DNA of 36,387 nucleotides from Candidatus Sericytochromatia bacterium. GTDB lineage: Bacteria; Cyanobacteriota; Sericytochromatia; UBA7694. The DNA is taken from NCBI GenBank assembly GCA_018780035.1, contig JADMKE010000014.1, positions 137,271 through 173,657 on the forward strand. The letters run 5' to 3'. Under the pieces are notes generated by a model, which saw only the letters and a list, made by a program, of their open reading frames with translations, ran no database searches and was not told where the DNA came from. The translations under genes were made by a program, and so were the position numbers. Positions 4,142-36,387 of this stretch are shown here, piece by piece (within the stretch, counting starts at the first letter, position 1; the number at the start of each line of letters is the position of its first letter).

Positions 4142-4233
4142 CCAGATTGTCCTAGCTTTTCGATTCCACACTCAAATTAAAACATATATTCTTCCCAAGA
4201 TAAAAGCACAGTTCCGTCACACCCGCCCCCCTC

Positions 4234-13857: not shown

Positions 13858-14005
13858 GCGTAAACTACCCTGAACTTTCTTTGTTTGGTTTAAATTGAAT
13901 TTAAACTTACTTGATTCAATCTTAATATTCTTTTAACTAAAAACCCCTTGTCCCTTGCTAAAAAAGTGAAGAATTTTTGTTAAAAAATATTAAGAGGCGA
14001 CGAAG

Positions 14006-14098
14006 ATGCAAATCAATCCAGCAAAATGGATTGAAGCACCCCTGAATTTTAATACAGAGAAATCCCAGAAACAAGGGCTGTTTGCGAGGAAAATGTGA
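14006..14098 (+). CDS. Candidate 30-codon upstream ORF / leader peptide whose stop overlaps the ftcD GTG start.
   Basis: ATG 14006 has AAGAGG 8 nt upstream. The peptide is MQINPAKWIEAPLNFNTEKSQKQGLFARKM. The TGA at 14096-14098 overlaps GTG 14095 of ftcD. There is no homology evidence, and it could be a chance ORF in AT-rich leader sequence. Confidence 0.25.
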   Translation: MQINPAKWIEAPLNFNTEKSQKQGLFARKM

Positions 14099-14994: not shown

Positions 14995-15108
14995 AATCTG
15001 GCCGAAATCAAAGCAGCAATGACAATCTCAGACAAGGGTGGTATTATCAAAGCAGCAAGCGAGGTTTATGGCCTTCTTTGCGCATGCTGCTAACGAGGAG
15101 ATACCTTT

Positions 15109-15984
15109 TTGATGCAACCGACCTCTCTCTCTCGCATTATTCAGGATACCCACGCCCTGCCCTCTATTCCTGGCGTCGCCAGTCGCTTACTCGAACGCCT
15201 GCAAGATCCCGAAACCCACGCAGCTGAAATCAGCACCCTGATTGAAATGGATCCGGCTCTCAGCCTCAAAGTATTACAATTGGCCAATTCTGCCATGTTT
15301 GCCCCCGCCAGCCCCGTGCATTCCATTGAAAGAGCCATCATGCTCTTGGGGTTTAATACAGTTCGTTTTTTGATTACCGGGGTCGCTGTTTTACAGGTCG
15401 CCCAAAAGATGCCCGAAAATGAAATTATCAATCCCGAAAATTTCTGGCGTTCGGCCTTTCGGGGCGCGGTTGCAGCCAAATATTTCGCAGAGCAAAGCAA
15501 TTATCCCGAATCCAATGAGGCCTATTTGGCAGGTCTGATTCGCGAAATAGGCAAAATCGCCTTGATTCAATGTGCTTATGAGACCTATTTAAGCGTGGTA
15601 AAGGCCGCCCAAAACGCCAATGTAGCTGTGGTACACAAAGAAAGGGAGATCTTGGGTTTTACCCACGCCGATGTCGGCGCCTTGCTGGCCGTCAAATGGA
15701 ATCTCGATGAAGGCCTGGCAAGTGTGATTGCGGCTTACCCTTTTCCTGGCGATCACCCCGAACTGAACAATTTACATCTTGCCACTGTTTTGCACTTGGC
15801 CGACCGTTTTGCCGCCCTAGAGACCCCAACGGCAGCGCATTTTGAGCAGATTTTAGCCGAACTCGATCCGCTGGCAATCCAGTATTGGTCCCAAGAGCAA
15901 GGCCGCAATCTCAGCCCCGAAAGCCTTGAAATGGATTGGCAGGCCTTAAAATCCCAACTCGATCAGGGCAACCCATTCATCTAA
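15109..15984 (+). CDS. HDOD-domain signalling protein.
   Basis: The sequence 'LPSIPGVASRLLERLQDPETHAAEISTLIEMDPALSLKVLQLANSAMF...GLIREIGKIAL...FTHADVGALLAVKW' is a typical HDOD domain. The start is TTG 15109 or ATG 15112, with GAGGAG upstream. Confidence 0.85.
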   Translation: MMQPTSLSRIIQDTHALPSIPGVASRLLERLQDPETHAAEISTLIEMDPALSLKVLQLANSAMFAPASPVHSIERAIMLLGFNTVRFLITGVAVLQVAQKMPENEIINPENFWRSAFRGAVAAKYFAEQSNYPESNEAYLAGLIREIGKIALIQCAYETYLSVVKAAQNANVAVVHKEREILGFTHADVGALLAVKWNLDEGLASVIAAYPFPGDHPELNNLHLATVLHLADRFAALETPTAAHFEQILAELDPLAIQYWSQEQGRNLSPESLEMDWQALKSQLDQGNPFI

Positions 15985-21121: not shown

Positions 21122-23539
21122 ATGCCAGAAAGTACAGATCACGATTGGTTGGAAGCCCAAACAGCCTGGGAAGCCGGCCTGTTCGACAAAGCCCGGCTCA
21201 AGCTCGAAAAGAGACTCAATCGCCATCCCCAAGATACATCCACACTTGCCTTATTGGGTCAGGTTGCTCAGGCCCAGCACCACTGGAAAGAGGCCCGTCG
21301 CCACTTTGAACAGGCCCACGAACTGGCCCCCGCAAACCCAGAATATACCCACTTATTGGCCCAGTGGTTTGTCGCTCGCCAAGGTTTCCCAGAGGCCGAA
21401 GCCCTTTATGCCGCTTTTTTGACCGCTTACCCAGCCCATCCTTCCCTGCGGGTCGAATACGCCGCGCTATTGGGGGCCAGAGGAGCCCTCAACGAGGCAG
21501 AAACCCAACTCAAAACCTGTTTGGCCGACTTTCCCGATCAGCTCGATGCCTGGCTGCTCTACGGCAATCTGGCAGCGGCCATGGGCCAATTCAAGACCGC
21601 TGAAAACGCCTACCAAGAAATTATCTCCCGCCAGCCAAAATTGCCCGAGGTCTATCGCCGCAGGGGTCAACTCGCGCTGATGCAAGGCCTCCCAGAACAG
21701 GCCTTGCCCCAGTTTGAACAGGCCCTGGAACTGGATCGTGACGATGCCGAAAGCTGGAGCAATCTCGGCGCCGTCAAGCTGATGATGGCCCAAACCCCAG
21801 CGGAACGGGGTGAGGCGATCCGGGCCTGCATGCAGGGCCTGCTGCGCGACAACCGCAACCCGCAGATTCTCGCCAATATTGGCCTGGGCTTTTTCCAAAT
21901 GGAACTTTATCCCGAAACCCTCTTTTATCTTGATCAGGCGCGCAGCCTTGATCCGCAATTGCAGATCGGGGATTTTGAATTGGGGATGTCTCTGCTCAAA
22001 ATCGGCAAAGCCGGTCACGCTTTGGAATATTTGCAAAACTGCCAGACCGCCGCAGAAGAACCCCCCGAAAATCTGGCCCAGGTGGCCGCTTGGCTGGGGT
22101 ATATCCGGGCCCAACAGGGGGATCTGGTTCAGGCCCAAAAAGACTATTTGGCCCTGGAGACCTGCGATCCCCACCAAGGCGGAAAATGGCTAGCGGCATC
22201 GCTCTTGCCGCCGGTGGCGGCCTCAGAATCGGCCTGGCAAGACTATGCCTTGCATTACCGCCGGGCCCTGGCCAAATTGCAGCAGGCCCCAGCATTTAAA
22301 CTCAAACAGATGCCCGTGGACATGCCTGGCCTGTTTTGGGCCTACCAGAGCGACAATGTCAGACCCGAGCAAGAAATCCAAGCCCAGCTCTGGCAACGAG
22401 CCCTACAAGACAGGCTGTGCAGCACAAAACACAAGACACGTCCCCAAGCCCCCTGGCGGATTGGGCTGGTCTCACGCTATTTTCACAATCACTCGGTAAT
22501 GGGGGTTTTCGCCCGCCTGATTCAGGCCTTGAGCCAAGAACCCAGCTTTGAAGTCGAATTGTTTATGCTCGGCCCCAGTGGCGAAGATGCCACCACCGCC
22601 TTTTTGAGCCGCCTGTCGCTCAAGCGGCATTTCCTCGGTGGCCAAGACTTAGATCAGATCAACAAAGCGATTCTCAGCCGCGAGTTGGATGTCTTGCTCT
22701 ACCCGGAGTTGGGCATGGACCCGTTGACCTTTGCCCTGGCCTGTTCGCGCCTGGCCCCTTACCAAGCCGTCTTATCTGGGCACCCGGTCACAACAGGCCT
22801 CAACACCATCGACAGCTATCTTTCCAGCCGCTGGCTTGAACCGGCTGAAAATGCCCAGGCCGCTTATAGCGAAAAGTTAATCTGTCTGGACGAATTACTG
22901 CCGGATTTTCCCTTTCCCACTCTGCCCAGCCAAAACAAAAGCCGCTCTGAACTGGGCCTGAAGCAGAAACGCGTTTATCTCTGCCCGATGATGTTATTTA
23001 AGCTGCACCCGGCCATGGATGCCGTCTTTGCTGAAATTTTGGCCCGCGACCGCGAAGGGGAGATTGTCTTTTTTCAATACCCACCTTATTCGTTGCACGA
23101 CGGCCTGGAAAAAGCCCTGATCAAACGCTGGGCCCGCAGCATTCCCCAGGCCAAACGCCTGCGTTTTTTGCCCTGGGCCTCGCGCGAAGACCTGCTGCGC
23201 CTGATTCAACACGCCGATGTGGTGCTCGACAGTTTTCCCTTTGGCGGCGGCAATACCAGCTATTTGACCCTGGCAATGGGCACACCGCTCGTGACCCTGG
23301 CTGCACCTTATTTACGCGGGCGCAGCAGCACAGGCATGTATCTGCGCATGGGTCTGCCTGAACTGCCCGCCCAGAGCCCCACTGAATATGTCGAAAAGGC
23401 CCTGAAATGGGCCAACGAACCACAGGCCCGTGCAGAGGTCAAAGCCCTGATCGAAGCCCAACGCGGCGTGCTCTTTGACAACCCAGCCGGGTCGCAGGCT
23501 TTGATTAATTTTTTGAAGAACTCCCTGGCAAGTCTTTAA
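21122..23539 (+). CDS. TPR-repeat protein fused to an O-GlcNAc-transferase-type (GT41, SPINDLY-like) glycosyltransferase domain.
   Basis: The N-terminal 400 aa hold multiple TPR repeats. The C-terminal half contains 'RIGLVSRYFHNHSVMGVF...LDVLLYPELGMDPLTFALACSRLAPYQAVLSGHPVTTGL...KLHPAMDAVFAEIL', characteristic of the GT41 catalytic domain. It lies 9 bp after gloB. Confidence 0.85.
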   Translation: MPESTDHDWLEAQTAWEAGLFDKARLKLEKRLNRHPQDTSTLALLGQVAQAQHHWKEARRHFEQAHELAPANPEYTHLLAQWFVARQGFPEAEALYAAFLTAYPAHPSLRVEYAALLGARGALNEAETQLKTCLADFPDQLDAWLLYGNLAAAMGQFKTAENAYQEIISRQPKLPEVYRRRGQLALMQGLPEQALPQFEQALELDRDDAESWSNLGAVKLMMAQTPAERGEAIRACMQGLLRDNRNPQILANIGLGFFQMELYPETLFYLDQARSLDPQLQIGDFELGMSLLKIGKAGHALEYLQNCQTAAEEPPENLAQVAAWLGYIRAQQGDLVQAQKDYLALETCDPHQGGKWLAASLLPPVAASESAWQDYALHYRRALAKLQQAPAFKLKQMPVDMPGLFWAYQSDNVRPEQEIQAQLWQRALQDRLCSTKHKTRPQAPWRIGLVSRYFHNHSVMGVFARLIQALSQEPSFEVELFMLGPSGEDATTAFLSRLSLKRHFLGGQDLDQINKAILSRELDVLLYPELGMDPLTFALACSRLAPYQAVLSGHPVTTGLNTIDSYLSSRWLEPAENAQAAYSEKLICLDELLPDFPFPTLPSQNKSRSELGLKQKRVYLCPMMLFKLHPAMDAVFAEILARDREGEIVFFQYPPYSLHDGLEKALIKRWARSIPQAKRLRFLPWASREDLLRLIQHADVVLDSFPFGGGNTSYLTLAMGTPLVTLAAPYLRGRSSTGMYLRMGLPELPAQSPTEYVEKALKWANEPQARAEVKALIEAQRGVLFDNPAGSQALINFLKNSLASL

Positions 23540-24629
23540 AACTTAAAAGTTTCAAACTGAGCTTGGTGCCCTGCCCAACTTTGCTCTGAATCTCAACGCT
23601 GGAGCGCAACAAACGGGCAATTTCGTCGCAGATACGCAAATCCATGCCTTCCAGGAGATCGCTTTCTCCACGCAGCTCTTCCAGGGCTTCGGCCACAAAA
23701 CCAGGACCATTGTCTTCTTGGCTCAACACAGACTCACGGCCTTCTTGGTACAGGCGCAAGGAAAGGGTACTGGCTGGTGGCAAATGCTGTAAGGCAAAGT
23801 GCATCCAACCATGAGACAATTCCCGCAGCAATTGGGGTTCGGCCAATACTTCATGGTCTGGATTGCAGCGCAGGCGGAGTTCAATTTGCCGAGCAGAGCA
23901 GGGCTCCATATACTGGGCCAGGATTTCGTCCAAAATGTCCCTGACATTGACCTTTTGCAGTGCGGGAAAGGGCATGAAGCGGTAATGGGCCTGGCGCAGA
24001 AGCTGATGCAAATGTTTTTGTCCCCGCTTTGCGGCAAAGAGAGCCTCTCTGAGGTATTTTTCAGGCAGACTTGGAATATCTGGCCAGGATTTTTGCAGAT
24101 TTTCCAGCCGCAAATCCATTTGCCCCAGTCCTTCGTTGAGTTCGCAAGAGAGCACCTGAAACATCTCATCTTTGGCTTGGTTAAAGCGTTTGAGTTCGTT
24201 TTCCCGGCTGTGTAAAATCAGGCTATTGCGAACCCGTGCCAAAAATTCCAGTTTATCCACAGGTTTGCGCACAAAATCGACAGCGCCCAATCCCAAGGCC
24301 CGTGACAGGTCATAACTGCGGGTCATGATGCCTGTACAAATGATTACAGGCAAATCCGCAAGCAGGGCATTTTGTTTTAATTGTTGCAGCAGGGTTAAGC
24401 CGTTCATATGGGGCATTTCCCAATCGCTGATCAGCAGATCCAACGGCTCTTGACGGGCAATTTCCAGGGCCAGCAGACCATGATTGGCCCTTAAAATTTC
24501 GAAAGGCCAGCCACTGGCGCGCAAAAATCCCTGCAGGGTTTCCAATGCACTGAGTTCGTCATCGACCAATAAAATTCGGGCCGGGGAACGGGGCCCAAAA
24601 CAGGCTGGCAAAGAATAAGACTCCGTCAT
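23505..24629 (-). CDS. Response-regulator receiver domain fused to a histidine-kinase-like region (dimerisation plus ATPase domains) in which the phospho-acceptor His is replaced by Cys. It is a probable pseudokinase or atypical signalling protein.
   Basis: The receiver reads 'ILLVDDELSALETLQGFL...DLLISDWEMPHMNGLTLL'. The H-box-like region reads 'FQVLSCELNEGL' against the consensus 'SHELRTPL'. The ATPase G1 box 'DNGPGF' and the G2-like 'GQGTKLSL' are present, but the N-box Asn is not evident. ATG 24629 has GGGAG upstream; the track start is TTG 24641. Confidence 0.8.
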   Translation of the reverse strand: MTESYSLPACFGPRSPARILLVDDELSALETLQGFLRASGWPFEILRANHGLLALEIARQEPLDLLISDWEMPHMNGLTLLQQLKQNALLADLPVIICTGIMTRSYDLSRALGLGAVDFVRKPVDKLEFLARVRNSLILHSRENELKRFNQAKDEMFQVLSCELNEGLGQMDLRLENLQKSWPDIPSLPEKYLREALFAAKRGQKHLHQLLRQAHYRFMPFPALQKVNVRDILDEILAQYMEPCSARQIELRLRCNPDHEVLAEPQLLRELSHGWMHFALQHLPPASTLSLRLYQEGRESVLSQEDNGPGFVAEALEELRGESDLLEGMDLRICDEIARLLRSSVEIQSKVGQGTKLSLKLLSFKDLPGSSSKN

Positions 24630-24675
24630 TGACGCTCCCAAATCTATCCAACAGCGTTTAATCTATCCATTTTTA

Positions 24676-26946
24676 TTATAATCGGCTGTTGGGTCTTTCT
24701 GTCAGAGGATCTTCGCTTAAGCCTGCCAGCAAGCGGCTGTAACTTTCTTGGTCAAAGGCGTTGATGGCTTGATGCAGGCCTGAGAGCCAGGTTTGGGCTT
24801 GGGGCGACAGGGTTTGATTGCTGCTAGCCAAAACAGCCTCGATCCGACTAAATTGGTAGACCTGCAACCCCCTCAGTTCTGTCAGCAGAGGGGCCAGTTC
24901 TTTGCTGAGCCCTGCGCGATCGTTCTGTTCTTCTGATCGGCTGACACCAGCTCCAGCAGGCACACGCTCTGTGATTTGCTGCCGGGCCTGGGGCAATTCC
25001 AACTTGACCTCGGTTCCCTTTTCCGCTTGGCTGTTTAAGTAGATCTTGCCACCCAAAGCCTCGGTTGCCAGCTTGCAAAAGGCCAATCCCAACCCGGTCG
25101 AAGATAAAAACAGTTCAGATTCGTGGTGGCCCGTTTGAAATTTTTCAAACAGCCGCTGTTTTTGTTGCTCTGAAATCCCGTTGCCCTGATCCCGGATCGT
25201 GAGGGTGACTTCTGCCTGCGCAAATTGCCCTGCCAACTCCACGGTGGAGCCCGGTGGGGCGTATTTGATCGCATTGCTGAGCAAATTGACCAAGACCCGG
25301 CGCAGCAAGAGCACATCACAGTTGAGCAAAATCCCTTCCGGCAAGTCGGTTTTTAAGAAAATATTGCGGCGTTCGGCATAAAAGCGCAGTTCTTGCAGCG
25401 CTTCTTGCACCAAAGCCAGCAGTTCATACTCTTCCCATTTGAGCTGCAGTGCAGTATTGCGGGCCAGGCTCAGATCGAGCAGGTTTTGAATCAGCAACTG
25501 CATCTGCCGCCCCGCTTCACGAATCTGTTGCCAAGCACCGAGTTGACTGTTGTCTTGTGCCAAAATCACCCCCAGCGGGGTTTTGAGATCGTGAATGATC
25601 ATCTCGGTCAGAGTTTCACGGGCTTCGCTCAGGGCCTCGACACGGGCCTTGGCTTGATTCAGGTCTTCTGTGCGCGCCAGCACTTTGGCTTCGAGTTCCA
25701 AGTTGAGGCTTTGCAATTCCTGGGTCAGAGACTCACGCATCACAAAGGCCTGAGAAAATCGCCGGGCCAGCAAAATCGCCTGACAAAAGCTAAAGATCAC
25801 ATAGCCCCAAAGCACCAAATCTTGGCTGCGAATCAACTCCATATTGTGCAGGATATCGTGTACAGCCAGGATCAAATAAGCGGCAAAACCACCCCAAAAG
25901 AAATAGGCTCCTTCCCGTTTATGCCTCACCGCCTGATAAGTGACCCAAACGGCATAAAGCAATTGGGCCAAATGCAATCCCCAGAAAGGTAAAAGGCTTA
26001 AACTGTGTAGGGGTGAGGGCAAGAGCAAAGTTGCCAAAAGCAACCCCCAAACAGGCCAGGTCAAAAAACGAATGATCTTGGCTGTGGTTTCATCGGGAAA
26101 GAGGGCCTGCAGATACTTAAACATTAAAAAGGTCGCCCCGTAAAGCACCAAGCGGGTCAGGCGCAAACTCAGTTCAAAGCTATCCAACCCCAGCAAACTC
26201 TCAAAGAGATGGGTCATCATCAAATCATAATAGAGCGAGGCGCACAAAATAGTCAGACCAAACCAGAGCGCCAAGCGGTTTCGCGGCAATATGCCCCAAA
26301 GCAGCAGGTGGTAAAGCGCCAAAAAGAAGACAAAGCCCAAAGCCAGGGCAATACCCGTCTGTTCTTGGTTTTCTGCCAATGAAATCTCACTGGCCAGGCC
26401 CAGCCAAAGGGGTTCGATCAGACCCGAACGGTGAAAGGTCGAATTGGATACATCACAATGCAAATGGCCCTTGTCCTGACGCAAAACAAAGGGCAGAAAG
26501 CGATTGCGGCGAGAAGCCACCAGTTCTCCACGCCAATGCGTACCGCTGTGAGCCACCAATTGTCCCTCAAAATAACAGGCGTAGGCACTGCCTTGAAAAC
26601 GGGTGCGCAAACGCAGGACCTGACCCACATCCGCTGGGGCAAAATTCACTTGCAGGGCATAACGGGCCTGGCCCAATTGTGTGCGCCAAAGCGGCAATTT
26701 TTCCAGTTTTTCCCAGCGCCCAGGCACACGAATGGCTACCTGTTGGGTACTTTGCCCAAACCGAAAGAGCCATTCCCCATTGAGTTTAAGCGGGGCTTGT
26801 TGCCTCAGCGACCATGTGCGCAGATCCAATACCCCGGCTTGGGCTTGGGGGGGCAAAACCGGAACAGCCAAAGCCCAACCAAACAGAGGGCCAGATAGCC
26901 AAAAACAAATTAAATAAACAAATATCACCCAAAAGGGCTTTTGCAT
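24676..26946 (-). CDS. Sensor histidine kinase with a 7TMR-DISM periplasmic sensor domain and 7TM module, plus a roughly 120-aa C-terminal extension of unknown function.
   Basis: The N-terminus has a signal/transmembrane segment. 'LDLRTWSLRQQAPLKLNGEWLFRFGQ' is the 7TMR-DISMED2 signature. Seven hydrophobic helices follow. A coiled coil leads to the H-box 'IIHDLKTPL', then an N-box and G-boxes 'IRDQGNGIS' and 'GLGLAFCKLATEALGGKI'. ATG 26946 has GGGGAA 8 nt upstream. Confidence 0.9.
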   Translation of the reverse strand: MQKPFWVIFVYLICFWLSGPLFGWALAVPVLPPQAQAGVLDLRTWSLRQQAPLKLNGEWLFRFGQSTQQVAIRVPGRWEKLEKLPLWRTQLGQARYALQVNFAPADVGQVLRLRTRFQGSAYACYFEGQLVAHSGTHWRGELVASRRNRFLPFVLRQDKGHLHCDVSNSTFHRSGLIEPLWLGLASEISLAENQEQTGIALALGFVFFLALYHLLLWGILPRNRLALWFGLTILCASLYYDLMMTHLFESLLGLDSFELSLRLTRLVLYGATFLMFKYLQALFPDETTAKIIRFLTWPVWGLLLATLLLPSPLHSLSLLPFWGLHLAQLLYAVWVTYQAVRHKREGAYFFWGGFAAYLILAVHDILHNMELIRSQDLVLWGYVIFSFCQAILLARRFSQAFVMRESLTQELQSLNLELEAKVLARTEDLNQAKARVEALSEARETLTEMIIHDLKTPLGVILAQDNSQLGAWQQIREAGRQMQLLIQNLLDLSLARNTALQLKWEEYELLALVQEALQELRFYAERRNIFLKTDLPEGILLNCDVLLLRRVLVNLLSNAIKYAPPGSTVELAGQFAQAEVTLTIRDQGNGISEQQKQRLFEKFQTGHHESELFLSSTGLGLAFCKLATEALGGKIYLNSQAEKGTEVKLELPQARQQITERVPAGAGVSRSEEQNDRAGLSKELAPLLTELRGLQVYQFSRIEAVLASSNQTLSPQAQTWLSGLHQAINAFDQESYSRLLAGLSEDPLTERPNSRL

Positions 26947-27077
26947 CGTCATTTCCCCACTCACAGTCCCTGGTGCAGCAAGCGCTCTTGCAGGTGTCTA
27001 GAGCATTTCAGTTTAAACCACCCAGGGCGATTTTGAATACCCTGGGCGGGCTCTGGCATTGTTTCAGAGATAGCCCA

Positions 27078-30000
27078 TCAAGGAGAAATTCTGCGAACAC
27101 GGTGGTTAAGCCGGTCGGCCACATAGACCTGACCTGTACTATCTACGCTCACACCGGTCGGATTGTTCAGCTGAGCCAAACCTGCAATGCTGTTGTCTCC
27201 GGCCAGAGCAGCGGCCCCCGTTCCAGCAAGGGTATAAATAAAATTGGCAGTCATGGCTTGGCCATAATAATTCCCTGATGTGATCGGGATAAACCGAATC
27301 TTGTGATTGCCAGTATCGGCAATAAACACCCCTGTGGCATTGGCAAAGACCCCGCGTGGGCTGCTCAGACGGGCTGAGGTCGCGCTACCGCCATCCCCTG
27401 TTGCACCGGCATTGCCATCACCAGCGATGACATACAGGGTATCTGCGGCCATGACTTGGCCAAAATAGTTACCCGCGGTGTCGGGCCTGAAGAAGATGCG
27501 GTGGCTGCCTGCATCGGCAATGTACACATGCCCGCCGTTGGTGGCGTTGGCCACCCGATGGATACCACTCGGACTGTTCAAAGCGCTGCCACCAAAGCCA
27601 CCGCCTGCAACAAAATAGATATTGCTGCCAGCGACCGTTCTGCCAAAGCGGGTGGCGGGCCCGGTCAGGAGATTGGAGAAATAGGCCACGTTATTGCCCG
27701 TATCGGCAATCAAGGTGCCATTGCCCTGATCTGCAACCCCTTCGGGACTGGCCATATTGGCCGCGAAGCGGGCAGTACCATCGGTCGCAGCACCATTGGT
27801 GCCACTGCCATTGACAGTATAAATACTGCCGGCAGTCATGGCGATATTGTAAAAAGTGGCAGTGGTATTGCTGAGGGTGCGTACCCGCTGATTGGCGGTA
27901 TCTGCAAAGGTCAGCAAAATATTGCCAATCAGGGCAATCCCGTGGGGATCGTTGACCTGAGCGGAGGTGCCCGCACCATTATCACCGGCAAATGTGCCGG
28001 TGCCATTGCCGGCCAGGGTATAGATATTGCCTGCGGTCATGCCAGCCACCCCAAAAAAGTCACCATTGCTGGCAGGCACAAAGCGAATGCGGTGATTGCT
28101 GCTATCGGCAATGGCCACATGATTGGAGGCATTGATAGAGACGCCCCAGGGGGCATTTAATTGTGCGCTTGCAGCAGCGCCATTGTCACCACTGAAGCCC
28201 TGGGTCGAACCGGCAAAGGTGGTGATTCTGGGCATGACTGTAAAATTGCTTCCGGCACTGGTTTGGGTCCCCACCTGAACAGTGGTGGCATAAGGCGCGG
28301 CATTGGATGTCAGAGAAGGTACTGTAACAGTGAGAGCCGTGGCTGTCGCCCCTGTGACTGTGGCATTTGTGCCGCCAAAACTGACGGTATTGCTGCCCAG
28401 TGTGGTGTGAAAGCCTGAACCATTGATCGTGATACTGGCTCCCGCCACATCACTGCTGGTACCGGCAGAAGTGAAACCGGTAATCGCAGGTGTGACGGCA
28501 TAATTATTCGTGCCGGCATTGGTTTGCCCTGCCACCGTGACCGTGACATTCTGGCTGCCAAAGATTCCGGCAGGCACCGTCACATTGAGGCTGGTCACTG
28601 AAGCGGTATTGACCGTGGCTGTGGTTGTACCGAAACGCACGGTATTGTTGCCAGGGGTCGTGTCGAAGCCGGTGCCGGTGATGGTCAGGGCACTGCCAAT
28701 CGTGCCATTGCTGGCACTCAGGTTGGTAATTGTGGGCCCTGCGGCACTCACTGTGTAGTTATTGGTGCCTGCATTGGTCTGTGCGCCGACCTGAACCGTC
28801 ACATTCTGAACGCCGACATTGTTGGGCACCGTGACCGTCAATTGGGTTGTGGTGGCAGCCGTGACTGTGGCAGCAGTGCCACCAAAGCTCACGGTATTGC
28901 TGCCGAGTGTGGTATGAAAACCACTGCCGTTAATAGTCATGCTACTGCCAACATTGCCTGCGATGGGGGTGAGATTGGTAATCGCTGGCGTAACCGCATA
29001 ATTATTCGTGCCGACATTGGTTTGCCCTGCCACCGTGACCGTGACATTCTGGCTGCCAAAGATTCCGGCAGGCACCGTCACGTTAAGGCTGGTGGCTGAA
29101 GCGGTATTGACTGTGGCCGTGGTCGTGCCAAAACGCACGGTGTTGTTGCCAGGGGTGGCATCAAAGCCCGTGCCGGTGATTGTCAGGGTACTGCCAATCG
29201 CGCCATTGCTGGCACTCAGGTTGGTAATCGTGGGGGTCACATTAAAATTATCTGCGGCGGTATTGGCGCTGGTCTGGTTGCCGACCTGCACAGAAATATC
29301 CTGGGCCCCGGTGATGCCCACTGGCACCGTGACCGTGAGTTGGGTATTGCTGGCTGCTGTAACTGTGGCAATGGTGGTGCCAAAGCGCACGGTATTGCCT
29401 CCGGTTGTGGCGTGAAAATTTGTGCCGTTGAGGGTAACGCTGCTGCCAATCGGGCCGGCACTCGCACCTAAACTGGTAATACTGGGGGTCGCTGGGGTGG
29501 CTGTTACTGTCACAGCATGGGTTCCACCTTCTGTGCTCGTCACCGGATTGGTGGCCACAGCATAGGTATACGTGGTTCCGGGGGTACCGGCACTGGAAGC
29601 CAAAAGCCGCAAGCCAGAACCAGGAGTGGATTTGACAAAAGCAGTCACGCCATTGCCTGCTGCCGTAACCACGGGTGTGGCACTGTCGGTCAATTGCAAA
29701 CGGGCTTGGTCTGCCCCCACTAAGCCCGTCACCGTGGCATTGACAGTGCTGCCGTTGAGGCGGTAATTGGCTGGAGTCAAAGCCCCTGGATTCTGGCTCA
29801 AAAGATCATTGGCCAATTGGGTCAGGTTGATCAGGGTCGGATGGGTGGTATAGGTATAGTTGGGATAGGTGCCTGCCACACCGGTGATCTGATTGATCAG
29901 GGTATTTAAATCCGCCAGCACGATTGCTTTGGCACGGGTGAGATTGGTGGCCATCAGGCTTTTCATCACCTTGGCCGCAGGAGTGCTCAAAAAACTGACC

Positions 30001-30476
30001 TCCACATTGGCATTGTTGATTCCGGGATGGCTGATCACACTGGCCAGTTCGGCCTGGGGAATGAGCGCCACACCGTCATTGACACTGAGCTCCAGCAATA
30101 ACAATTGATCGGGGATCAGATTGTTAAAGGTCAGGCTCAGATTGCCGCCAACAGGGTAATTGACTTGGCCCTGGGCATCAGAGCCATTGGGCCGGGTAAC
30201 AAGATTAAAGCTGTCGGTGACTAAGGCTTTGACTTTGGTGGCAGAGGCAAAGTCCAGGGCCTGGGTTTTAAACGCTGGCAAAGCAGGCAAATCCAGGTGT
30301 AAGGTCAGTTGATTCCCGTGCCATTCCATCCGAGCAGGCCTGAGTAAAACAGGTGAAACTACGGGAGATTGCTGTAAAGGAGAAGCAGGATTTGGCATAG
30401 ATGTCAGCTCAGGTGAACTTTGGCAGGCCGCCAACAGAGAGAGAAGCACAAAGAGCGAAAGAGATGAATAGCGCAT
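27078..30476 (-). CDS. Giant surface lipoprotein (1132 aa) with a lipobox signal, at least 7 IPT/TIG domains and a C-terminal six-bladed NHL beta-propeller.
   Basis: The signal is 'MRYSSLSLFVLLSLLAAC'. TIG units recur as 'TITNLSASNG.IGS.LTITGTGFD.TPGNNTVRFG...LNVTVPAGIFGSQNVTV'. NHL blades read 'AIADSSNHRIRFV', 'FADTANQRVRTL', 'VYIADAGSHRIFF', 'VFIADTGNHKIRFI' and 'VYVADRLNHRVRRI'. The ATG shares one nucleotide with the upstream gene's stop (TAATG). Confidence 0.9.
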   Translation of the reverse strand: MRYSSLSLFVLLSLLAACQSSPELTSMPNPASPLQQSPVVSPVLLRPARMEWHGNQLTLHLDLPALPAFKTQALDFASATKVKALVTDSFNLVTRPNGSDAQGQVNYPVGGNLSLTFNNLIPDQLLLLELSVNDGVALIPQAELASVISHPGINNANVEVSFLSTPAAKVMKSLMATNLTRAKAIVLADLNTLINQITGVAGTYPNYTYTTHPTLINLTQLANDLLSQNPGALTPANYRLNGSTVNATVTGLVGADQARLQLTDSATPVVTAAGNGVTAFVKSTPGSGLRLLASSAGTPGTTYTYAVATNPVTSTEGGTHAVTVTATPATPSITSLGASAGPIGSSVTLNGTNFHATTGGNTVRFGTTIATVTAASNTQLTVTVPVGITGAQDISVQVGNQTSANTAADNFNVTPTITNLSASNGAIGSTLTITGTGFDATPGNNTVRFGTTTATVNTASATSLNVTVPAGIFGSQNVTVTVAGQTNVGTNNYAVTPAITNLTPIAGNVGSSMTINGSGFHTTLGSNTVSFGGTAATVTAATTTQLTVTVPNNVGVQNVTVQVGAQTNAGTNNYTVSAAGPTITNLSASNGTIGSALTITGTGFDTTPGNNTVRFGTTTATVNTASVTSLNVTVPAGIFGSQNVTVTVAGQTNAGTNNYAVTPAITGFTSAGTSSDVAGASITINGSGFHTTLGSNTVSFGGTNATVTGATATALTVTVPSLTSNAAPYATTVQVGTQTSAGSNFTVMPRITTFAGSTQGFSGDNGAAASAQLNAPWGVSINASNHVAIADSSNHRIRFVPASNGDFFGVAGMTAGNIYTLAGNGTGTFAGDNGAGTSAQVNDPHGIALIGNILLTFADTANQRVRTLSNTTATFYNIAMTAGSIYTVNGSGTNGAATDGTARFAANMASPEGVADQGNGTLIADTGNNVAYFSNLLTGPATRFGRTVAGSNIYFVAGGGFGGSALNSPSGIHRVANATNGGHVYIADAGSHRIFFRPDTAGNYFGQVMAADTLYVIAGDGNAGATGDGGSATSARLSSPRGVFANATGVFIADTGNHKIRFIPITSGNYYGQAMTANFIYTLAGTGAAALAGDNSIAGLAQLNNPTGVSVDSTGQVYVADRLNHRVRRISP
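28244..29240. repeat. Two near-identical tandem copies of a 498-bp unit (166 aa, two TIG domains) inside the 1132-aa gene.
   Basis: The same sequence appears at about 28499-28616 and about 28997-29114, with only about 6 mismatches over the roughly 118 nt compared by eye. Reverse-strand pseudo-ORFs 28510-28758 and 29008-29415 translate almost identically. Confidence 0.8.
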
Positions 30477-32809
30477 TAGTTAAAGCCTCCATTGGCGTTG
30501 AGGGTGATTGAAGGCAAAATCGCCGCCACAGCGTCACTGCTGAGCACATCCACGATCACGGTGATGTTGATATCCCCCGGCAAATTGAGAGCGGTGGGCA
30601 CAGGCACGATCAACTGGTTGCCATTTACAGCAGCAGCCGGGACTTCAATCGTCCCAAAGCGCACGCGGTTATTGCCCGCTAAAAGGGTGTCAAAACCCGT
30701 TCCTGTCAGGGTCAGGGAGCTTCCTCTGACGAGACGAGCCTTGCCAGAGACAATGCCATGAGGTGTGGCCAGAGCCGTAATCTGGGGTTTCACTTTAAAG
30801 GACAAAGCATTGCTGTTGGCACCATTGACCTTGACAGAGACATTCTGGGCCCCAAAGATGCCGGCGGGTACCGTCACGGTGAGACTGTTGGCTGTCGCGG
30901 CGGTCACTGTGGCCGAGACATTGCCAAAATTCACCAGATTTTCAGCTGCAACTGCACTGAAATTGGAACCAGTCAACGTGATCGTGCTGCCAATCGGAGC
31001 TATAGTAGAGGCAAGGGTCGAAAGGGTGGGTTGATTGAGGGCCGAAGCCCCGCCGCCTCCGCTCCCCCCGCCGCTGCTTCCCCCACCGGAAGACTGACGC
31101 CAAGTAGACGTCGTGGCTTTGCCTGTCACAGTATCATTGCCGCGCTTGACATCCACACGGAATTCATAGCGGCTATCAGGACTGAGGCCACTTGCAAGAT
31201 ATTTGAGTTTTTCCCCGGCTTGGCCATTGATTTTGGCAAGCAGGCGATTGCTTTCAAAAATTTCATAAGTGGCTGCGGCAGCAATCCCCGTAAATTCAAG
31301 TTGAATTTGGGTATATTCATTGTTTGGGAATGGATAAGCCTTGATCTGCAGACCAGTAGCCGAAGCGCTGGGGCTCGGAGAAACCGAAGGCGTGATCTGG
31401 GGAGAGGGAGTCGGAGAAGCGGTCGGCAATGCTGTCGGTCTGGCACTAGGAGATGCTGAGGGCTGAAGGCTGGGCGCGGGTTGGGGAGTGGGAACGGTTT
31501 CCGGTAACTGGGCCTGCAAAAGTGTCAATTCACAAGGGCCCAGCGGGGGAAATGGATTGGAAAGGATGACGGTTCCTTGTGAATTGTTCAGGTTCACAAT
31601 CTCTTTTCCGGTGTTATTGAGCTGTTTATTCTGAATATTTTCACGGACCGAAGAGATGGCAATGGCCGTTTCTGCGTTTGATATTTTTGTAATTTTTGAA
31701 TCAAAAATATTTATATTTTTATTTAAATCCAACAAGATAGACTGACTATCTCCCAAAATAATTTGATTAAGCGTCTGATTGATTTTGGTAATTTCATTGC
31801 TGGTGAGACTCACCATATCCATCACACTTCCGAGAGAGGTGTCCTGGTCATTACATTGTGGCAGCGAGTTGCTCAGATTGATGATTGAGCCCAAATTTTC
31901 AGCGACTGGCTTGAGAGGGCTGGGCTTTGGCGAAGAAAATAGCACAGAGGTGGTATTTGGGGAGGGGACTTGCTGAATCTGAAAACCCTCAGAGGGGGCA
32001 GGTGCTAAAGCCGCAATTAAGTTGGCTTGTTTGAGCTGTCGCTGAATTTCCTGGCCCATGAGTCCATTGAGATAGCGAATCTGAATCAAAGATTCCAAGC
32101 GCGCCACCAGATTGGGCATTGAGCTTAGAAAGGTATTTTGAATATTCTCTAAGCTTTCTTTTTCCAATCCCACGCGACCATCTTGCTGGGAGCCGCGTAT
32201 AATATCTGCCAAGACTGTTGAGCGGGGCGAAACTTCCACAGTCAATGAGACAGGCTTATTTGGCACATCTACGAGGGCACGGGCAATTAATTGACTTTGT
32301 TGATTGAGGGCCAAGACCTCATATCTGAACCCCCCTGGTAGGGCATTGATCTGAAAATGGCCCGTGGCATCTGTTTGCGTGCTGGCCAATTCTTGACCAT
32401 CGGGTAAATAGATTTTGACAGTTTGATAAGCCAGTCCCTCCAAAACAGCTTTATTGCCTTGAGGCATCAATAAACGCCCTTTCAGAGCCAAGGGCGATGC
32501 TTGCTTGAGCTGAGCGAGAACGGCTTGTTTCAGCTGGGCTTGTGCTCGCGCTTGCAATGCTGGTTCGACAGTTACCACTGAGGGGAGTTCTATTTCTTCA
32601 GCTGTCTGGAAATAGCTGTTTAAGGCCTGTCTTAAGCGTTCCCTTTCACTGTTTTTTTCACTCTGGCTTAAAGGAGGGAGAACCGCAGGTGTGCTTAAAA
32701 GCAAATTGCTGCCCAAAGGCCCAGTCTCTTGGCAGCCCAGTAAAAGGCTGAAACAGAGACAGGTAAAGGTCAGTGATTTTTTAAATCGAAAATGAGATGG
32801 ACGTATCAT
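30476..32809 (-). CDS. Surface lipoprotein (about 777 aa). Domains in order: CarboxypepD_reg-like beta-sandwich, low-complexity N/I/K-rich region, Pro/Ser/Thr/Ala linker, Fn3-like domain, Gly/Ser linker and two C-terminal IPT/TIG domains.
   Basis: ATG 32809 (MIRPSHFRFKKSLTFTCLCFSLLLGC, lipobox) has GAGGAG 10 nt upstream; the track start is TTG 32827. CarboxypepD_reg-like motif is 'KIYLPDGQELASTQTDATGHFQINALPGGFRYEVLA'. The Fn3-like segment is 'YEIFESNRLLAKINGQAGEKLKYLASGLSPDSRYEFRVDV'. The TIG motif is 'TIAPIGSTITLTGSNFSAVAAENLVNFGNVSATVTAATANSLTVTVPAGIFGAQNVSV'. It is a paralogue of the N-terminal region of the 1157-aa protein. Confidence 0.85.
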   Translation of the reverse strand: MIRPSHFRFKKSLTFTCLCFSLLLGCQETGPLGSNLLLSTPAVLPPLSQSEKNSERERLRQALNSYFQTAEEIELPSVVTVEPALQARAQAQLKQAVLAQLKQASPLALKGRLLMPQGNKAVLEGLAYQTVKIYLPDGQELASTQTDATGHFQINALPGGFRYEVLALNQQSQLIARALVDVPNKPVSLTVEVSPRSTVLADIIRGSQQDGRVGLEKESLENIQNTFLSSMPNLVARLESLIQIRYLNGLMGQEIQRQLKQANLIAALAPAPSEGFQIQQVPSPNTTSVLFSSPKPSPLKPVAENLGSIINLSNSLPQCNDQDTSLGSVMDMVSLTSNEITKINQTLNQIILGDSQSILLDLNKNINIFDSKITKISNAETAIAISSVRENIQNKQLNNTGKEIVNLNNSQGTVILSNPFPPLGPCELTLLQAQLPETVPTPQPAPSLQPSASPSARPTALPTASPTPSPQITPSVSPSPSASATGLQIKAYPFPNNEYTQIQLEFTGIAAAATYEIFESNRLLAKINGQAGEKLKYLASGLSPDSRYEFRVDVKRGNDTVTGKATTSTWRQSSGGGSSGGGSGGGGASALNQPTLSTLASTIAPIGSTITLTGSNFSAVAAENLVNFGNVSATVTAATANSLTVTVPAGIFGAQNVSVKVNGANSNALSFKVKPQITALATPHGIVSGKARLVRGSSLTLTGTGFDTLLAGNNRVRFGTIEVPAAAVNGNQLIVPVPTALNLPGDINITVIVDVLSSDAVAAILPSITLNANGGFN

Positions 32810-32832
32810 ATAGCTGGGGCTCCTCAAAATAT

Positions 32833-35800
32833 TTACCGCAATGTGACAGTGCGAGGCTTAGAAATTGCACCGTCTTTGGTTTTTACCCATAAATAGAGCT
32901 TGGTCGGTCTTTTGGGCAATTTTTCACTGACAGAATCTTTGATGAGTTTGGCAGACATTTCAACCAAACCGTTATATTTGTATAAAGACAGGGATTTCGC
33001 AACCGAGCTGAGCTCAAGGTTTATAACCAATTTCTCTCCCTTGGGCCCATTTTTACCTGGTTCATAGGGAGAAATAAAGATTTGATTGTCTTTAATACTC
33101 TCTGAAACATGGTACGTCTTTAAAGTGAATAAAGTATCAAAAGAGATCTGTTTATTGTCGATCACCTTATCCAGAATGCTGGCAATCTCAACAGAGGTGT
33201 TGATCACTGTCCCTGAATATTCAAGTTGAACAGGGTGAGTGCCATACAACCCCATTGGTACCTTCACATCTATTTCCGAAGCAGATATGACACTTGGGGT
33301 TACCTTTTCAGCAGAGCCTACTTTAACAGAGGTATTACCAAGCGCCTGCCCCTTGATTCTGACTCTGTTGTCCCCGTATTCATTTTCTTGAGAAGTAAAG
33401 ATCGGGCTGTCGGTATTCAAGTTTAATTCAAACGTGAAGGGATTGGGCAGTTCGAATTTGGCTGGGTCTTTTTCTGGATTGGTTTTATTGGCCACGACAA
33501 ATTTGGTTGAATATTTGGTTGGGTTAATATAATCCTGATACGGACAGATAATTTTTTTCGCTTGTGCATCTTCTTGGCAAGCCCGATAAAAACTGACGCC
33601 ATTTTGATTGGCAATTTGAGCATAAAAGGACACATAGGGCGAATCAAAAGGGGGCAAATTAGCGTAATTGCCAATTTCGATATGGCTTGGTTTGGGCTCA
33701 ATATTTGAGATGGTCGGAACCAGAAAATCAAGTTTTACCCCATTGGAAACCAAATTCCCAAATTCAACTTTGACTTCTTGATTACCAGCCAACTTAGGCG
33801 CTCCTGCCTCTATGAGGGTTTCTTGCGGAGTTAAGGTCACTTTGGTCACATCAACATCTTGCCCGCCAATCTTGAGCTTGACTTGATCCGAGTTCAGGGC
33901 AGAAGTCGAAATCTTTAAGCGTTCTCCCTGTCTCACCTGGGTGATGTTTTGGCCGGCTGCATTTTGGATTTTATTGAGCGTGATTTCTTTGGTTGTTGCT
34001 CCCAGGGTGATCGGTTTGGCCTCTGAGATGATATTGTGATTGGTGACAGTCACCAATGTCTTTCCCTCTATGCCCTGAGGAACAATGACCGTCAAAGCCA
34101 CTTCGCGCGCACCCACTTGATTCGTACATCTGGCGCAATAAGGGCTGGGGATATTTACAAAGTTGAATTTAGAAGCAATTTCTTTAACAGACTCAACAAC
34201 AGCTATTTTATCGCCAAATTTGACAATATTCTGATCTTTTCTAGGATCAAAAACTCCTTGTATTTCTATTTTTTGAAATTCAGCTGCATTTTCAGGTAAA
34301 ATACCTGAAATTTTGGGGGTAATGAACAAAGGTACTTTATGAACATAGGTATTGGCGTATCCCAGATCAGACAAGAATAACTCGAGCGTTTGCTCACCCA
34401 ATAGCTGTTTGGGAAAGTTATCGATGGTCAGCAATGTGCGCTCTTGGGAGATCGATCTGCGAATAACATTGACCTTCACTATCTCTTTTTTATCGGTCAC
34501 CAAGTGGTTTACGACAAAGCTCTTATCTGAAAGATTGATTGCCAATTCCAATGTAGTGCCATTTTGAACCTGTTTGGAAAGAATCTCGGTGGTGGGTTCA
34601 ACAAAAAGAAAGCGATGTTTGGTCTTTAAATTATCCAGATAGAGCTTATAAACCCCGATATATTCTTTGGGCAGTGTTAATTTTAACTCACGGTCTGAAA
34701 CAAACTCTGGGATAAGCTCTTTTTGGAATGCTTGGGTTTGCAAATGATTCGTGAGAATAATTTTGTGATTTTTACCAAAGAGGCCATTGAGGGTGATTGT
34801 CCCACCTCTTTTGGTGTAAGTGGAATTTGTCTCCCCCATAATACCTGCCAGGGGCGTAAATTGGACGGCATTGGACGATTGCTGATTGACCATCAGCTTG
34901 ATATCGAGTGGATTGACAGAGCTGAGCATGGGAACTTCGACTTGCAGAGAAATAATCTGTTTGCCTTTGTCATCCAACTCAAAAGACATTCCGATATTTT
35001 TGGCCAAGACGTCTCCAAACATCACTTTGTTTTCAGCAAGGTTCTTAGAAAAATCCGTTGTTTTGAGGGTGACCGTATCCCCCACAGCAGCGGTGGTTTT
35101 ATCCAGGGTAATATTTGCCAGGGGAGGCAGGGGAGTCGACATCACAATGGGGAGAGGTGGAGTGCTTGTACTGCAGTTTCTGTTTCCCACCCGACCAATA
35201 ATCCCTGTTAAATCTGATTTTAATTCCGTTGTAACTGCTTCACGCAGATCCATGGCAGTGTAAAGGGTTGAAATTTGGGTGTTTTTGTTCAGGGACGTTT
35301 GGATGGTCAACAAAGGAGAAATCAACAGATGGGGAGAGTTGATATTGTTATTCAGGCTTTCAATCGATTGAATCATTTCGGGCCCCACACCAGACAGTCC
35401 ATTTAATTGGGTTAGCAATTTAATTTGCTTTGGGGACCCCCCGTTTATCAGACCTATTTGTTGAACTTTAAAGCCCGTTTGCATTTGCCCAGAGCGCTGA
35501 GAACAGGCCTGAGAACGCTTGAATACAGATTGGGTTTGAAAATCGTTCAGTTTTGTTTGCACACCCGCTTGTATTTCGTCTTGCACCTCGCTGACCAGAT
35601 TGAGCAATGACAGTCCGGACACAAGTCGGAAGAAATGCTCTGGATTTTGTGTCAGATATTTCTCAATTTGTGCCACAGAAATCTGTTCCAGGCCTGAACG
35701 CCCATCGCGCGAAGCCAGCCAAACAGCCTCAGCAACGGCTGTCGTTTCCAAAGTGAGATTTTGTTCAATACTATCAGAGGGCGGGGTGGCAGGCAGATCG

Positions 35801-36306
35801 AGCAAAGCACTGGCCAGAGAACGGCCTGTTTCAGTGCTGGCTACCAATTCTATCCGCATACCCGCAGGAACGCCTTGCAATGTGTATTGACCTTCGCGAT
35901 TGGTTTGGGCCACACCCAGAGTACTTCCATCCGGAGCATAAACGGTAAGCGGGATTCCTGAGACGGCTGTGTCTGGGGACAGTTCAAGCCGCCCCGTTAA
36001 GGTCACCTGCCTGGCTGTTTTACGCAGTTGATTGACTTCTTGGGAGGTAAATTGCGCCAATGCTGCATGATTATTTCCAAAACTCAGGTCTGGAGCTTGG
36101 GGATCTGCCAAAAATTGGGCTATTTTAGCTTCCAGAGCAACCCGCTCCCTTTGGGCTTCTGCTTTTGTCAATTTGGCAATCACAGGCTGGGTCAAAAAAG
36201 TGCTTGTGTTTGGATTGAGGGGGGCACTGGGTTGGCAGGCGGACAGATTCCAAACCGTTGCCAAACAGATCAGCCCAAGGAGATGGGTTTGGCGAAAGTG
36301 AAACAA
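32833..36306 (-). CDS. Giant surface lipoprotein (1157 aa as called). It has an N-terminal CarboxypepD_reg-like domain followed by many Ig-like / TIG-like beta-sandwich repeats. It is the first gene of the three-lipoprotein operon.
   Basis: The signal and lipobox read 'LLGLICLATVWNLSAC'. 'LTVYAPDGSTLGVAQTNREGQYTLQGVPAGMRIELVAS' is CarboxypepD_reg-like. The N-terminal 250 aa are collinear with the 783-aa paralogue. The track start is TTG 36306 with no SD. The frame is open upstream to the window end, so the true start is uncertain. The 3' end lies 5 bp from the next gene. Confidence 0.75.
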   Translation of the reverse strand: MFHFRQTHLLGLICLATVWNLSACQPSAPLNPNTSTFLTQPVIAKLTKAEAQRERVALEAKIAQFLADPQAPDLSFGNNHAALAQFTSQEVNQLRKTARQVTLTGRLELSPDTAVSGIPLTVYAPDGSTLGVAQTNREGQYTLQGVPAGMRIELVASTETGRSLASALLDLPATPPSDSIEQNLTLETTAVAEAVWLASRDGRSGLEQISVAQIEKYLTQNPEHFFRLVSGLSLLNLVSEVQDEIQAGVQTKLNDFQTQSVFKRSQACSQRSGQMQTGFKVQQIGLINGGSPKQIKLLTQLNGLSGVGPEMIQSIESLNNNINSPHLLISPLLTIQTSLNKNTQISTLYTAMDLREAVTTELKSDLTGIIGRVGNRNCSTSTPPLPIVMSTPLPPLANITLDKTTAAVGDTVTLKTTDFSKNLAENKVMFGDVLAKNIGMSFELDDKGKQIISLQVEVPMLSSVNPLDIKLMVNQQSSNAVQFTPLAGIMGETNSTYTKRGGTITLNGLFGKNHKIILTNHLQTQAFQKELIPEFVSDRELKLTLPKEYIGVYKLYLDNLKTKHRFLFVEPTTEILSKQVQNGTTLELAINLSDKSFVVNHLVTDKKEIVKVNVIRRSISQERTLLTIDNFPKQLLGEQTLELFLSDLGYANTYVHKVPLFITPKISGILPENAAEFQKIEIQGVFDPRKDQNIVKFGDKIAVVESVKEIASKFNFVNIPSPYCARCTNQVGAREVALTVIVPQGIEGKTLVTVTNHNIISEAKPITLGATTKEITLNKIQNAAGQNITQVRQGERLKISTSALNSDQVKLKIGGQDVDVTKVTLTPQETLIEAGAPKLAGNQEVKVEFGNLVSNGVKLDFLVPTISNIEPKPSHIEIGNYANLPPFDSPYVSFYAQIANQNGVSFYRACQEDAQAKKIICPYQDYINPTKYSTKFVVANKTNPEKDPAKFELPNPFTFELNLNTDSPIFTSQENEYGDNRVRIKGQALGNTSVKVGSAEKVTPSVISASEIDVKVPMGLYGTHPVQLEYSGTVINTSVEIASILDKVIDNKQISFDTLFTLKTYHVSESIKDNQIFISPYEPGKNGPKGEKLVINLELSSVAKSLSLYKYNGLVEMSAKLIKDSVSEKLPKRPTKLYLWVKTKDGAISKPRTVTLR

Positions 36307-36387
36307 CGGTGATCTTTGCTTAAGTTCAAAACTAACTGTAGTTTCGGAGATTTTTGCATGAGCAAAGAGAAAGGGCGTATTCTGAAA

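Follow-up and report, generated by a model that had tools for sequence, protein, structure and literature searches.

A 36,387-nt stretch of the genome of a Candidatus Sericytochromatia bacterium (contig JADMKE010000014.1; hereafter the window) contains five consecutive genes, which encode three predicted lipoproteins (P1, P2 and P3), a 7TMR-DISM histidine kinase and a receiver protein with a kinase-like domain devoid of the phospho-acceptor histidine. We propose, with a probability of roughly 55%, that this locus is one version of a Sericytochromatia-specific envelope cluster, made of a tandem array of lipid-anchored proteins and a dedicated signalling pair, with the array acting as a recombination hot spot in the clade of the window. 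Sericytochromatia, which are sister lineages of the oxygenic cyanobacteria, have to our knowledge not been cultured, hardly anything is known of their envelope or lifestyle, and no predator is known among them; a literature search found no paper on their envelope proteins.

An open reading frame (ORF) scan placed the five genes on the minus strand in the order P1 (32833-36306, 1157 amino acids (aa), TTG start), P2 (30476-32827, 783 aa from a TTG, or 30476-32809, 777 aa from an ATG), P3 (27078-30476, 1132 aa), kinase (24676-26964, 762 aa) and receiver/pseudo-kinase (23505-24641, 378 aa, or 23505-24629, 374 aa, the ATG at 24629 being the most likely start). This is the layout described in a first, sequence-only reading of the same DNA, which saw in it a glycan-sensing circuit tied to a complex of "giant" surface lipoproteins. 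The proteins are large rather than giant, and that interpretation is partly supported: its core, the link between sensor and lipoproteins, is upheld by the analysis below, and its specifics are not.

The evidence for this link comes from distant lineages. P3 itself is 100% identical to a protein from a Candidatus Sericytochromatia metagenome-assembled genome, and its N-terminal 700 aa belong to a large family of TIG lipoproteins of ~700 to ~790 aa, nearly all named members of which come from Sericytochromatia, with several per contig. Full-length homologues of both signalling proteins lie beside arrays of this same family in three further, far more divergent lineages, in three different gene orders or orientations. 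At locus L033, a single strand carries a histidine kinase of 736 aa, a REC-HATPase protein of 337 aa, a 229-aa protein with a weak receiver and a Trans_reg_C domain, TIG lipoproteins of 704 and 785 aa, and a PKD lipoprotein of 296 aa; L034 (a TARA scaffold) has the same order, also on one strand, but with four lipoproteins and one of 303 aa; and at L030 and L031 the three regulator genes point away from those for lipoproteins of 1556, 706, 785 and 781 aa and one of 297 aa. Against the proteins of the window, the kinases of L030, L033 and L034 align over their full length at 26-30% identity (E 1e-57 to 1e-80), as do the receiver/pseudo-kinases, in the same identity range (E 1e-25 to 1e-29), while the kinases and receiver proteins of these three loci are mutually 43-55% identical. 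Since the linkage has been kept despite this divergence and despite changes in order and orientation, gene neighbourhoods provide good evidence that the sensor pair is functionally tied to the lipoprotein array, as the sequence-only reading had supposed.

Throughout the family, the genes of an array lie within a few bases of each other, with stop/start overlaps of 1 and 4 nt among the junctions. The lipoprotein subfamilies follow one another in a conserved order (~700, ~785, ~785 and ~297 aa). A third regulator, an OmpR-type winged-helix protein, is encoded tightly after the receiver/pseudo-kinase gene in L033 (7056-7745), L034 (3452-4153) and L030 (972-1700), and its receiver is weak or degenerate (28.7 bits versus a cut-off of 30.2 in L033). 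A small PKD/Big-like lipoprotein (196-303 aa) ends the arrays (L026 14774-15667; L027 12386-13264; L033 12360-13250; L034 14772-15683) or precedes the array in L004 (32-622), the upstream side of which ends at the contig end; the copies are 34-38% mutually identical. The four-gene TIG array of L004, in which stop/start overlaps are of 1 nt, is followed by a gene for a T2SSE-family (GspE/PilB-like) ATPase (12699-14456), a single occurrence.

In close relatives of the window, the nearest genome locus being that of a Candidatus Blackallbacteria metagenome-assembled genome (MAG), the flanks are 90-96% identical in DNA and the segment between the hydrolase gene and the kinase gene is wholly different, with 0, 2, 3 or at least 4 lipoprotein genes. 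In L001, L002 and L005 it holds a gene for Lgt (prolipoprotein diacylglyceryl transferase) and genes for an 855-aa and a 1556-aa protein, the latter composed of an N-terminal module, a long middle, and Fn3-like, TIG and NHL domains. L019 has a fourth paralogue (1199 aa), then P1, P2 and P3, the last running into the contig end (at least four lipoprotein genes), and L006 has no lipoprotein gene there, its hydrolase gene overlapping the kinase start. Using blastn, we found that homology to L001 and L005 ends at the same position in both, 28744, inside P3. This breakpoint lies in the TIG repeat array (28227-29486, minus strand) and abuts a 266-nt duplication revealed by a repeat search, the two copies of which (28471-28736 and 28969-29234) are 90% identical. 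P3 and the 1556-aa protein of L001 are 97% identical over the last 556 aa of P3, and the first 576 aa of P3 are unrelated to that protein. Homology to L019 is 96% over 7.1 kb and stops at 36335, just upstream of P1; the upstream boundary of the cassette thus falls at 36336-36387, where L019 has its 1199-aa paralogue.

The cassettes also differ from their surroundings in composition, GC content at third codon positions being 0.43-0.47 in P1, the 1199-aa gene, the 855-aa gene and the 5′ part of P2 versus 0.54-0.70 in the flanking genes. A recent fission of a 1556-aa gene of the L001 type into P2 and P3 was considered and rejected: P2 is only 31-44% identical to the N-terminal part of that protein, so the two locus types are alleles of old or foreign origin that recombination within the TIG array has joined. 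By these comparisons, the trio of the window is one allele at a hypervariable islet and is no conserved set of three proteins, and the array between the hydrolase and kinase genes is a recombination hot spot in this clade. Low-GC cassette exchange, together with breakpoints in TIG repeats, suggests diversifying selection on an exposed structure. The synteny expected from the sequence-only reading therefore holds for the pairing of sensor and array, which recurs, and fails for the specific trio, which differs between strains with 90-96% identical flanks and has no counterpart next to the kinase in one of them. Because the trio is not conserved between close strains, the assembly of the three proteins into a fixed complex is unlikely.

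Two further observations concern the edges of this region. The last 52 nt of the window upstream of P1 (36336-36387) differ from L019 and contain a possible start of a divergent plus-strand gene (ATG 36358, MSKEKGRILK...); the difference could be a rearrangement or an assembly join, the window ending there. A second indel is found nearby, a Rieske/FMN_red gene inserted between the receiver gene and a GT41 gene in L001 (18344-19384) and L005 (about 13536-15408), which is absent from the window and L006.

Given that every sequence comes from MAGs or metagenome contigs, we considered that the mosaicism and the strain variants could be artefacts of assembly across TIG repeats. The 266-nt repeats, 90% identical, indeed sit at the breakpoint, and the junctions at 28744 and 36335 are seen only in the window's assembly. 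This explanation is very unlikely, however, as the alternative arrangement is present, with the same breakpoint, in three independent assemblies (JGI L001, Logan L002, NCBI MAG L005), L019 provides an independent confirmation of P1-P2-P3 over 7.1 kb, the repeats differ in sequence and all ORFs are intact.

Strain variation also bears on whether the adjacency of sensor and array is coincidental, the kinase pair being merely the conserved flank of an insertion/deletion hot spot. Such a view fits the variable cassette content of close strains, the overlap of the hydrolase gene with the kinase start in L006, where lipoprotein genes are lacking, the distant 7TMR-DISM kinases of L007-L009, which have no TIG neighbours, and the existence of arrays without the kinase pair. 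We consider it unlikely nonetheless, in view of the recurrence of both signalling homologues beside same-family arrays in L030/L031, L033 and L034, at 26-30% identity and in varied order and orientation.

Several points weigh against the proposal of a sensor-linked envelope cluster as a whole. L006 retains the kinase pair without adjacent lipoprotein genes; conversely, L003, L029 and L032 have arrays or single genes without such a kinase within 10 kb, and the two-component pair found in L027 is another one. Neither the window nor its close relatives have the OmpR-like gene or the small PKD lipoprotein, and the sources of L030, L033 and L034 state no taxonomy. Moreover, the MAG assembly of the window could be chimeric at repeats, its 28744 junction having been seen only there, and the structural model of the N-terminal module described below is of low confidence (pLDDT 58).

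We then analyzed the junctions between the five genes. The P2 stop and the P3 ATG share a one-base overlap, TAATG, as previously noted, and GGAGG is found 9-13 nt upstream of the P3 ATG. The 5-bp gap reported between P1 and P2 is obtained only with the TTG start at 32827, which lies 5 nt past the P1 stop; the 777-aa form of P2 quoted alongside it begins at the ATG at 32809 and leaves a 23-nt gap. This ATG is preceded by GAGGAG and is also the start in the gene call of L019, which makes it the likelier start of P2 on sequence grounds. The intergenic gap between P3 and the kinase (26965-27077, minus strand, 113 nt) contains an inverted repeat, CCCAGGG-N12-CCCTGGG (27021-27046), that has no T-run and hence is no canonical terminator; this gap and the first ~37 kinase codons fail to align with L001 or L005 by blastn.

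The terminator scan found no terminator-like site between the genes, with a frequency no higher than in shuffled sequence. Promoter-like sites were about twice as frequent as expected (21 versus a shuffle mean of 10.8, sd 3.8), scattered over both strands and inside genes, and the scan singled out no internal promoter. Translational coupling is hinted at by the 1-nt overlap with its Shine-Dalgarno-like GGAGG and the 23-nt gap with its GAGGAG, followed by the 113-nt gap before the kinase. The tight packing with stop/start overlaps seen family-wide, along with the lack of terminator-like sites between the genes, makes a single transcription unit plausible.

All three array proteins are predicted to be lipoproteins, in agreement with the initial reading. 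We defined a lipobox as [LVI]-x-[GAS]-C after a basic n-region and a hydrophobic core, with PROSITE PS51257-type as the strict pattern and L-x-[GA]-C as the classic one. A signal ending in a lipobox cysteine is found in P1 (LSAC, Cys24), P2 (LLGC, Cys26) and P3 (LAAC, Cys18); P2 and P3 pass the strict pattern, and P1 only the classic one, owing to an Asn at -4. The statement that each protein carries CarboxypepD_reg-like, TIG, Fn3 and NHL domains proved right in kind and not true for every protein: using Pfam, we found NHL in P3 and not in P1 or P2, CarboxypepD_reg (PF13620) below threshold in P1 and P2 only (18.8 and 21.3 bits versus 32.3), and fn3 (PF00041) below threshold in P2 only (14.6 versus 25 bits).

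P1 begins with an N-terminal module made up of helices and a putative transthyretin-like sandwich, and continues as a series of TIG/Ig-like domains that are very divergent. Its TIG signal (PF01833, cut-off 20.9 bits) is weak, 29.1 bits summed with no single stretch above threshold, and a custom TIG hidden Markov model matched residues 401-484 clearly and 732-763 and 989-1027 more weakly. P1 is a rare protein encoded by a gene of low GC content (0.44): an exhaustive HMMER search yielded 9 matches at E<=0.001 among 1.84 billion representative proteins, and in the same search its C-terminal 750 aa matched only the 1199-aa paralogue of L019. The P1 copy in L019 is 96-97% identical. A plasmid origin of P1 was considered, and tblastn gave no match in a plasmid collection.

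P2 is made, in order, of the N-terminal module, a region rich in N, S and I, a Pro/Thr/Ser linker, an Fn3-like domain, a Gly-rich linker, two TIG domains (57.6 bits, 2 repeats) and the C-terminal tail of the family (...LNANGGFN). Over the tail and the last domains, P2 is 44-50% identical to the L004 family members of ~780 aa. The N-terminal regions of P1 and P2 are collinear over ~290 residues (27% identity over 296 aa, E 4e-19), which bears out the paralogy previously assigned to the two upstream members, and the same module is found in two other proteins (P0002 and P0009) and in the 1199-aa protein of L019. In an AlphaFold2 model of the P2 module, residues 107-193 form a beta-sandwich between flanking helices; the predicted local distance difference test (pLDDT) score is ~62-88 for the sandwich (block means) and 58 overall.

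P2 and P3 have only TIG repeats in common. In P3, two Fn3/Ig-like sandwiches with a helical insert (residues 48-330, where Ig/Fn3-like folds were recognized) precede five TIG repeats (331-750; 152.7 bits) and an NHL beta-propeller (750-1132; NHL PF01436 74.9 bits, TEN_NHL 53.9 bits). In a PDB sequence search, the C-terminal 383 aa matched the ectodomain of M. tuberculosis PknD (1rwi) and teneurin-like proteins of bacteria (9pt5, 9ifo), with E values of 3e-14 to 8e-32. The lipoproteins are modular in design: in each, an N-terminal module precedes a stalk of beta-sandwiches of the TIG or Fn3-like type, and the head or tail varies, the head of P3 being the propeller.

In another placement that we considered, the lipoproteins would point into the periplasm or make up a structural envelope layer, as spacers or scaffold, instead of being outward-facing adhesins, and the kinase would monitor the state of the envelope and not an external glycan. 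A lipobox signal is by itself no proof of surface exposure, the domains are generic Ig-like spacers, lipoprotein biogenesis genes adjoin arrays, and 7TMR-DISM proteins also act in cell-wall growth, to which the 7TMR-DISM protein RgsP has been linked (PMC6107284). We regard this placement as rather unlikely, since strong strain turnover and low-GC cassettes are more typical of exposed, selected surfaces and the NHL propeller heads resemble extracellular sensor or binding domains. The biogenesis genes in question are those for Lgt, directly upstream of the cassette in L001 (6606-7424) and L005 (1782-2600), and for an apolipoprotein N-acyltransferase (Lnt)-like protein near the array of L027 (673-2016).

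The kinase was correctly recognized at the outset as a 7TMR-DISM protein. It comprises a signal/transmembrane segment, an ectodomain of ~165 aa, the 7TMR-DISM seven-transmembrane module, a coiled coil, the H-box, the N, G1 and G2 boxes and a C-terminal extension of ~100 aa. The 7TMR-DISM_7TM domain (PF07695) scores 60.5 bits at residues 206-401 (cut-off 29), HisKA 21.6 bits and HATPase_c 83.7 bits, and the translation contains intact boxes (HDLKTPL with His458, NAIKYAP, DQGNGI and GLGLAF). The kinase homologues of L030, L033 and L034 also match 7TMR-DISM_7TM. The 7TMR-DISMED2 domain (PF07696) invoked at first reading, on which the glycan-sensing idea rests, was not detected in the ectodomain at E<=10, a search of low power given that the control relative L007, which has a GEWEFYW motif, was also negative. 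No PDB match was found by sequence for the ectodomain, and the ectodomains of the L033 and L034 homologues gave very weak matches to sugar-binding domains of the GH2 type (E 0.04-0.08).

A genome scan returned the close loci L005 and L006 and 12 others that were distant or generic kinase matches; the three of these 12 that we examined (L007-L009) are the kinases without TIG neighbours mentioned above. A fusion with the pseudo-kinase was considered for the L007 kinase and rejected, the protein being a hybrid kinase of the usual kind joined to an adenylate cyclase. A word-index protein search with the sensor half returned one distant protein and missed even relatives that are ~90% identical, so that this count is no measure of rarity, and a metagenome scan with the kinase alignment gave generic kinase-core matches only.

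The last gene encodes, as first proposed, a degenerate receiver-kinase protein. Its receiver (PF00072, 77.6 bits) is intact, with D23/D24, D69, T99 and K122 present and invariant across the family alignment. HATPase_c is marginal (29.5 bits) and HisKA gives no Pfam match. In the dimerization and histidine phosphotransfer (DHp)-like helix, the acceptor position is occupied by Cys162, and across six family members (the window protein and five homologues) the residues found there are C, R, R, Q, Q and R, without a single His. In the catalytic and ATP-binding (CA)-like domain of the window protein DxGxG is kept, and the N-box Asn and the G2 box are lost; both are lost throughout the window's clade, whereas distant members still have the Asn of the N box, along with a G2 box reading GLGL. 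To judge from this alignment, the absence of the histidine is a conserved family trait.

Based on these data, we suggest that the 7TMR-DISM kinase would sense an extracytoplasmic or envelope cue via its ectodomain and seven-transmembrane module, autophosphorylate on His458 and pass the phosphoryl group to Asp69 of the receiver/pseudo-kinase. Since the latter has no acceptor histidine, it would have to signal through protein-protein contacts, and in the fuller clusters its probable target would be the adjacent OmpR-like DNA-binding protein, which could tune transcription of the lipoprotein array. The lipoproteins would be exported and acylated on the lipobox cysteine, and their Ig-like stalks would bind a ligand or build an envelope layer.

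The conserved C-terminal tail (...N-x-x-NGGF-x) raises the question of how the lipoproteins might associate. The subunits of the type V pili of Bacteroidia (FimA/Mfa1) are encoded by tandem genes, are synthesized as lipoproteins, and have transthyretin-like domains and a conserved C-terminal strand. By analogy only, the tail of one subunit could insert into the next to form a fibre, and the tail is common to the subfamilies and P2, putative transthyretin-like domains are present, and the tightly packed genes keep their subfamily order. Such a fibre is highly improbable: P1 and P3 have no tail, which may be just the last strand of a conserved terminal domain, no processing protease, cleavage motif or sequence similarity to the pili was identified, and subunits of 700-1500 aa are far larger than known type V pilins. 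We hold as quite improbable the more general scheme that would combine, in these non-photosynthetic relatives of cyanobacteria, a heteromeric envelope fibre or layer of strand-exchanging lipoproteins, a three-protein relay (7TMR-DISM kinase, His-less pseudo-kinase and OmpR-like protein with a degenerate receiver) and exposed subunits diversified by cassette exchange in the window's clade.

The proposed envelope cluster can be compared with several known systems. LigA and LigB of Leptospira are lipoproteins with long arrays of Big_2 Ig-like domains and a presumed role in surface binding. They resemble the array proteins in their lipobox signal, long bacterial Ig-like array and paralogous genes; they differ in having Big_2 instead of TIG domains, and are not known to be encoded in tightly packed tandem arrays or to be linked to a 7TMR-DISM kinase pair. 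We found no sequence relationship beyond the Ig-like fold (the NCBIfam Leptospira LIC10067 lipoprotein model scored 35 bits, far below its cut-off of 200). DivL of Caulobacter is a His-less pseudo-histidine kinase with a Tyr at the acceptor site and no known N-terminal receiver. It shares with the window's protein a DHp/CA-like fold without the histidine, which presumably signals by protein-protein interaction, whereas here the site varies (C, R or Q) and an intact receiver would drive the domain. The PknD ectodomain and teneurin-like proteins have, like P3, six-bladed NHL propellers as extracellular binding modules, the propeller of P3 being placed on a TIG lipoprotein stalk rather than on a kinase or a toxin-like shell.

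The kinase itself resembles in architecture the RetS/LadS-type kinases of Pseudomonas, which combine the 7TMR-DISM module with a histidine-kinase core (10.1101/2020.03.31.018614; PMC8498467; PMC7695008). RetS responds to mucin glycans (10.1101/2020.03.31.018614) and acts on GacS by contact (PMC8498467), a mode of signalling, partly by contact of kinase-like proteins, that would also apply here. The present system differs by the lack of a DISMED2 match and of hybrid receivers, by a separate receiver/His-less partner and by its lipoprotein-array neighbours.

Its building blocks are thus familiar, namely TIG and NHL lipoproteins, two-component control and recombination in repeats, and what the cluster contributes is the definition of a lineage-specific system, not a new principle. 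The array, conserved and sensor-linked and at the same time among the most strain-variable spots of the genome, is a good candidate for the structure by which the cells meet phages, surfaces or partners. For signalling, the cluster is a natural example in which a His-less kinase-like protein, driven by a receiver, is a conserved component.

Genes for TPR and GT41 (O-GlcNAc-transferase-like) proteins flank the locus on both sides in the window's clade (window 21122-23539, plus strand; L001 3435-5369 and 19404-21884; L006 7033-8967; L019 3120-5054), and none was seen in the distant clusters L030, L033 and L034. In the window, this gene and the receiver gene are convergent, with a 35-nt overlap at the 3′ end of the latter. 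Speculatively, the long Pro/Thr/Ser linker of P2 could be a glycosylation target. Elsewhere in the window, a 1071-aa ORF (4328-7543, plus strand) with no Pfam family and no obvious signal peptide adjoins a receiver/GerE response regulator (3485-4171, minus strand), and a gene for a clostripain-family (C11) cysteine peptidase (12490-13857, minus strand) lies ~10 kb from the array, amid housekeeping genes (RecO, HtrA-like, MutL).

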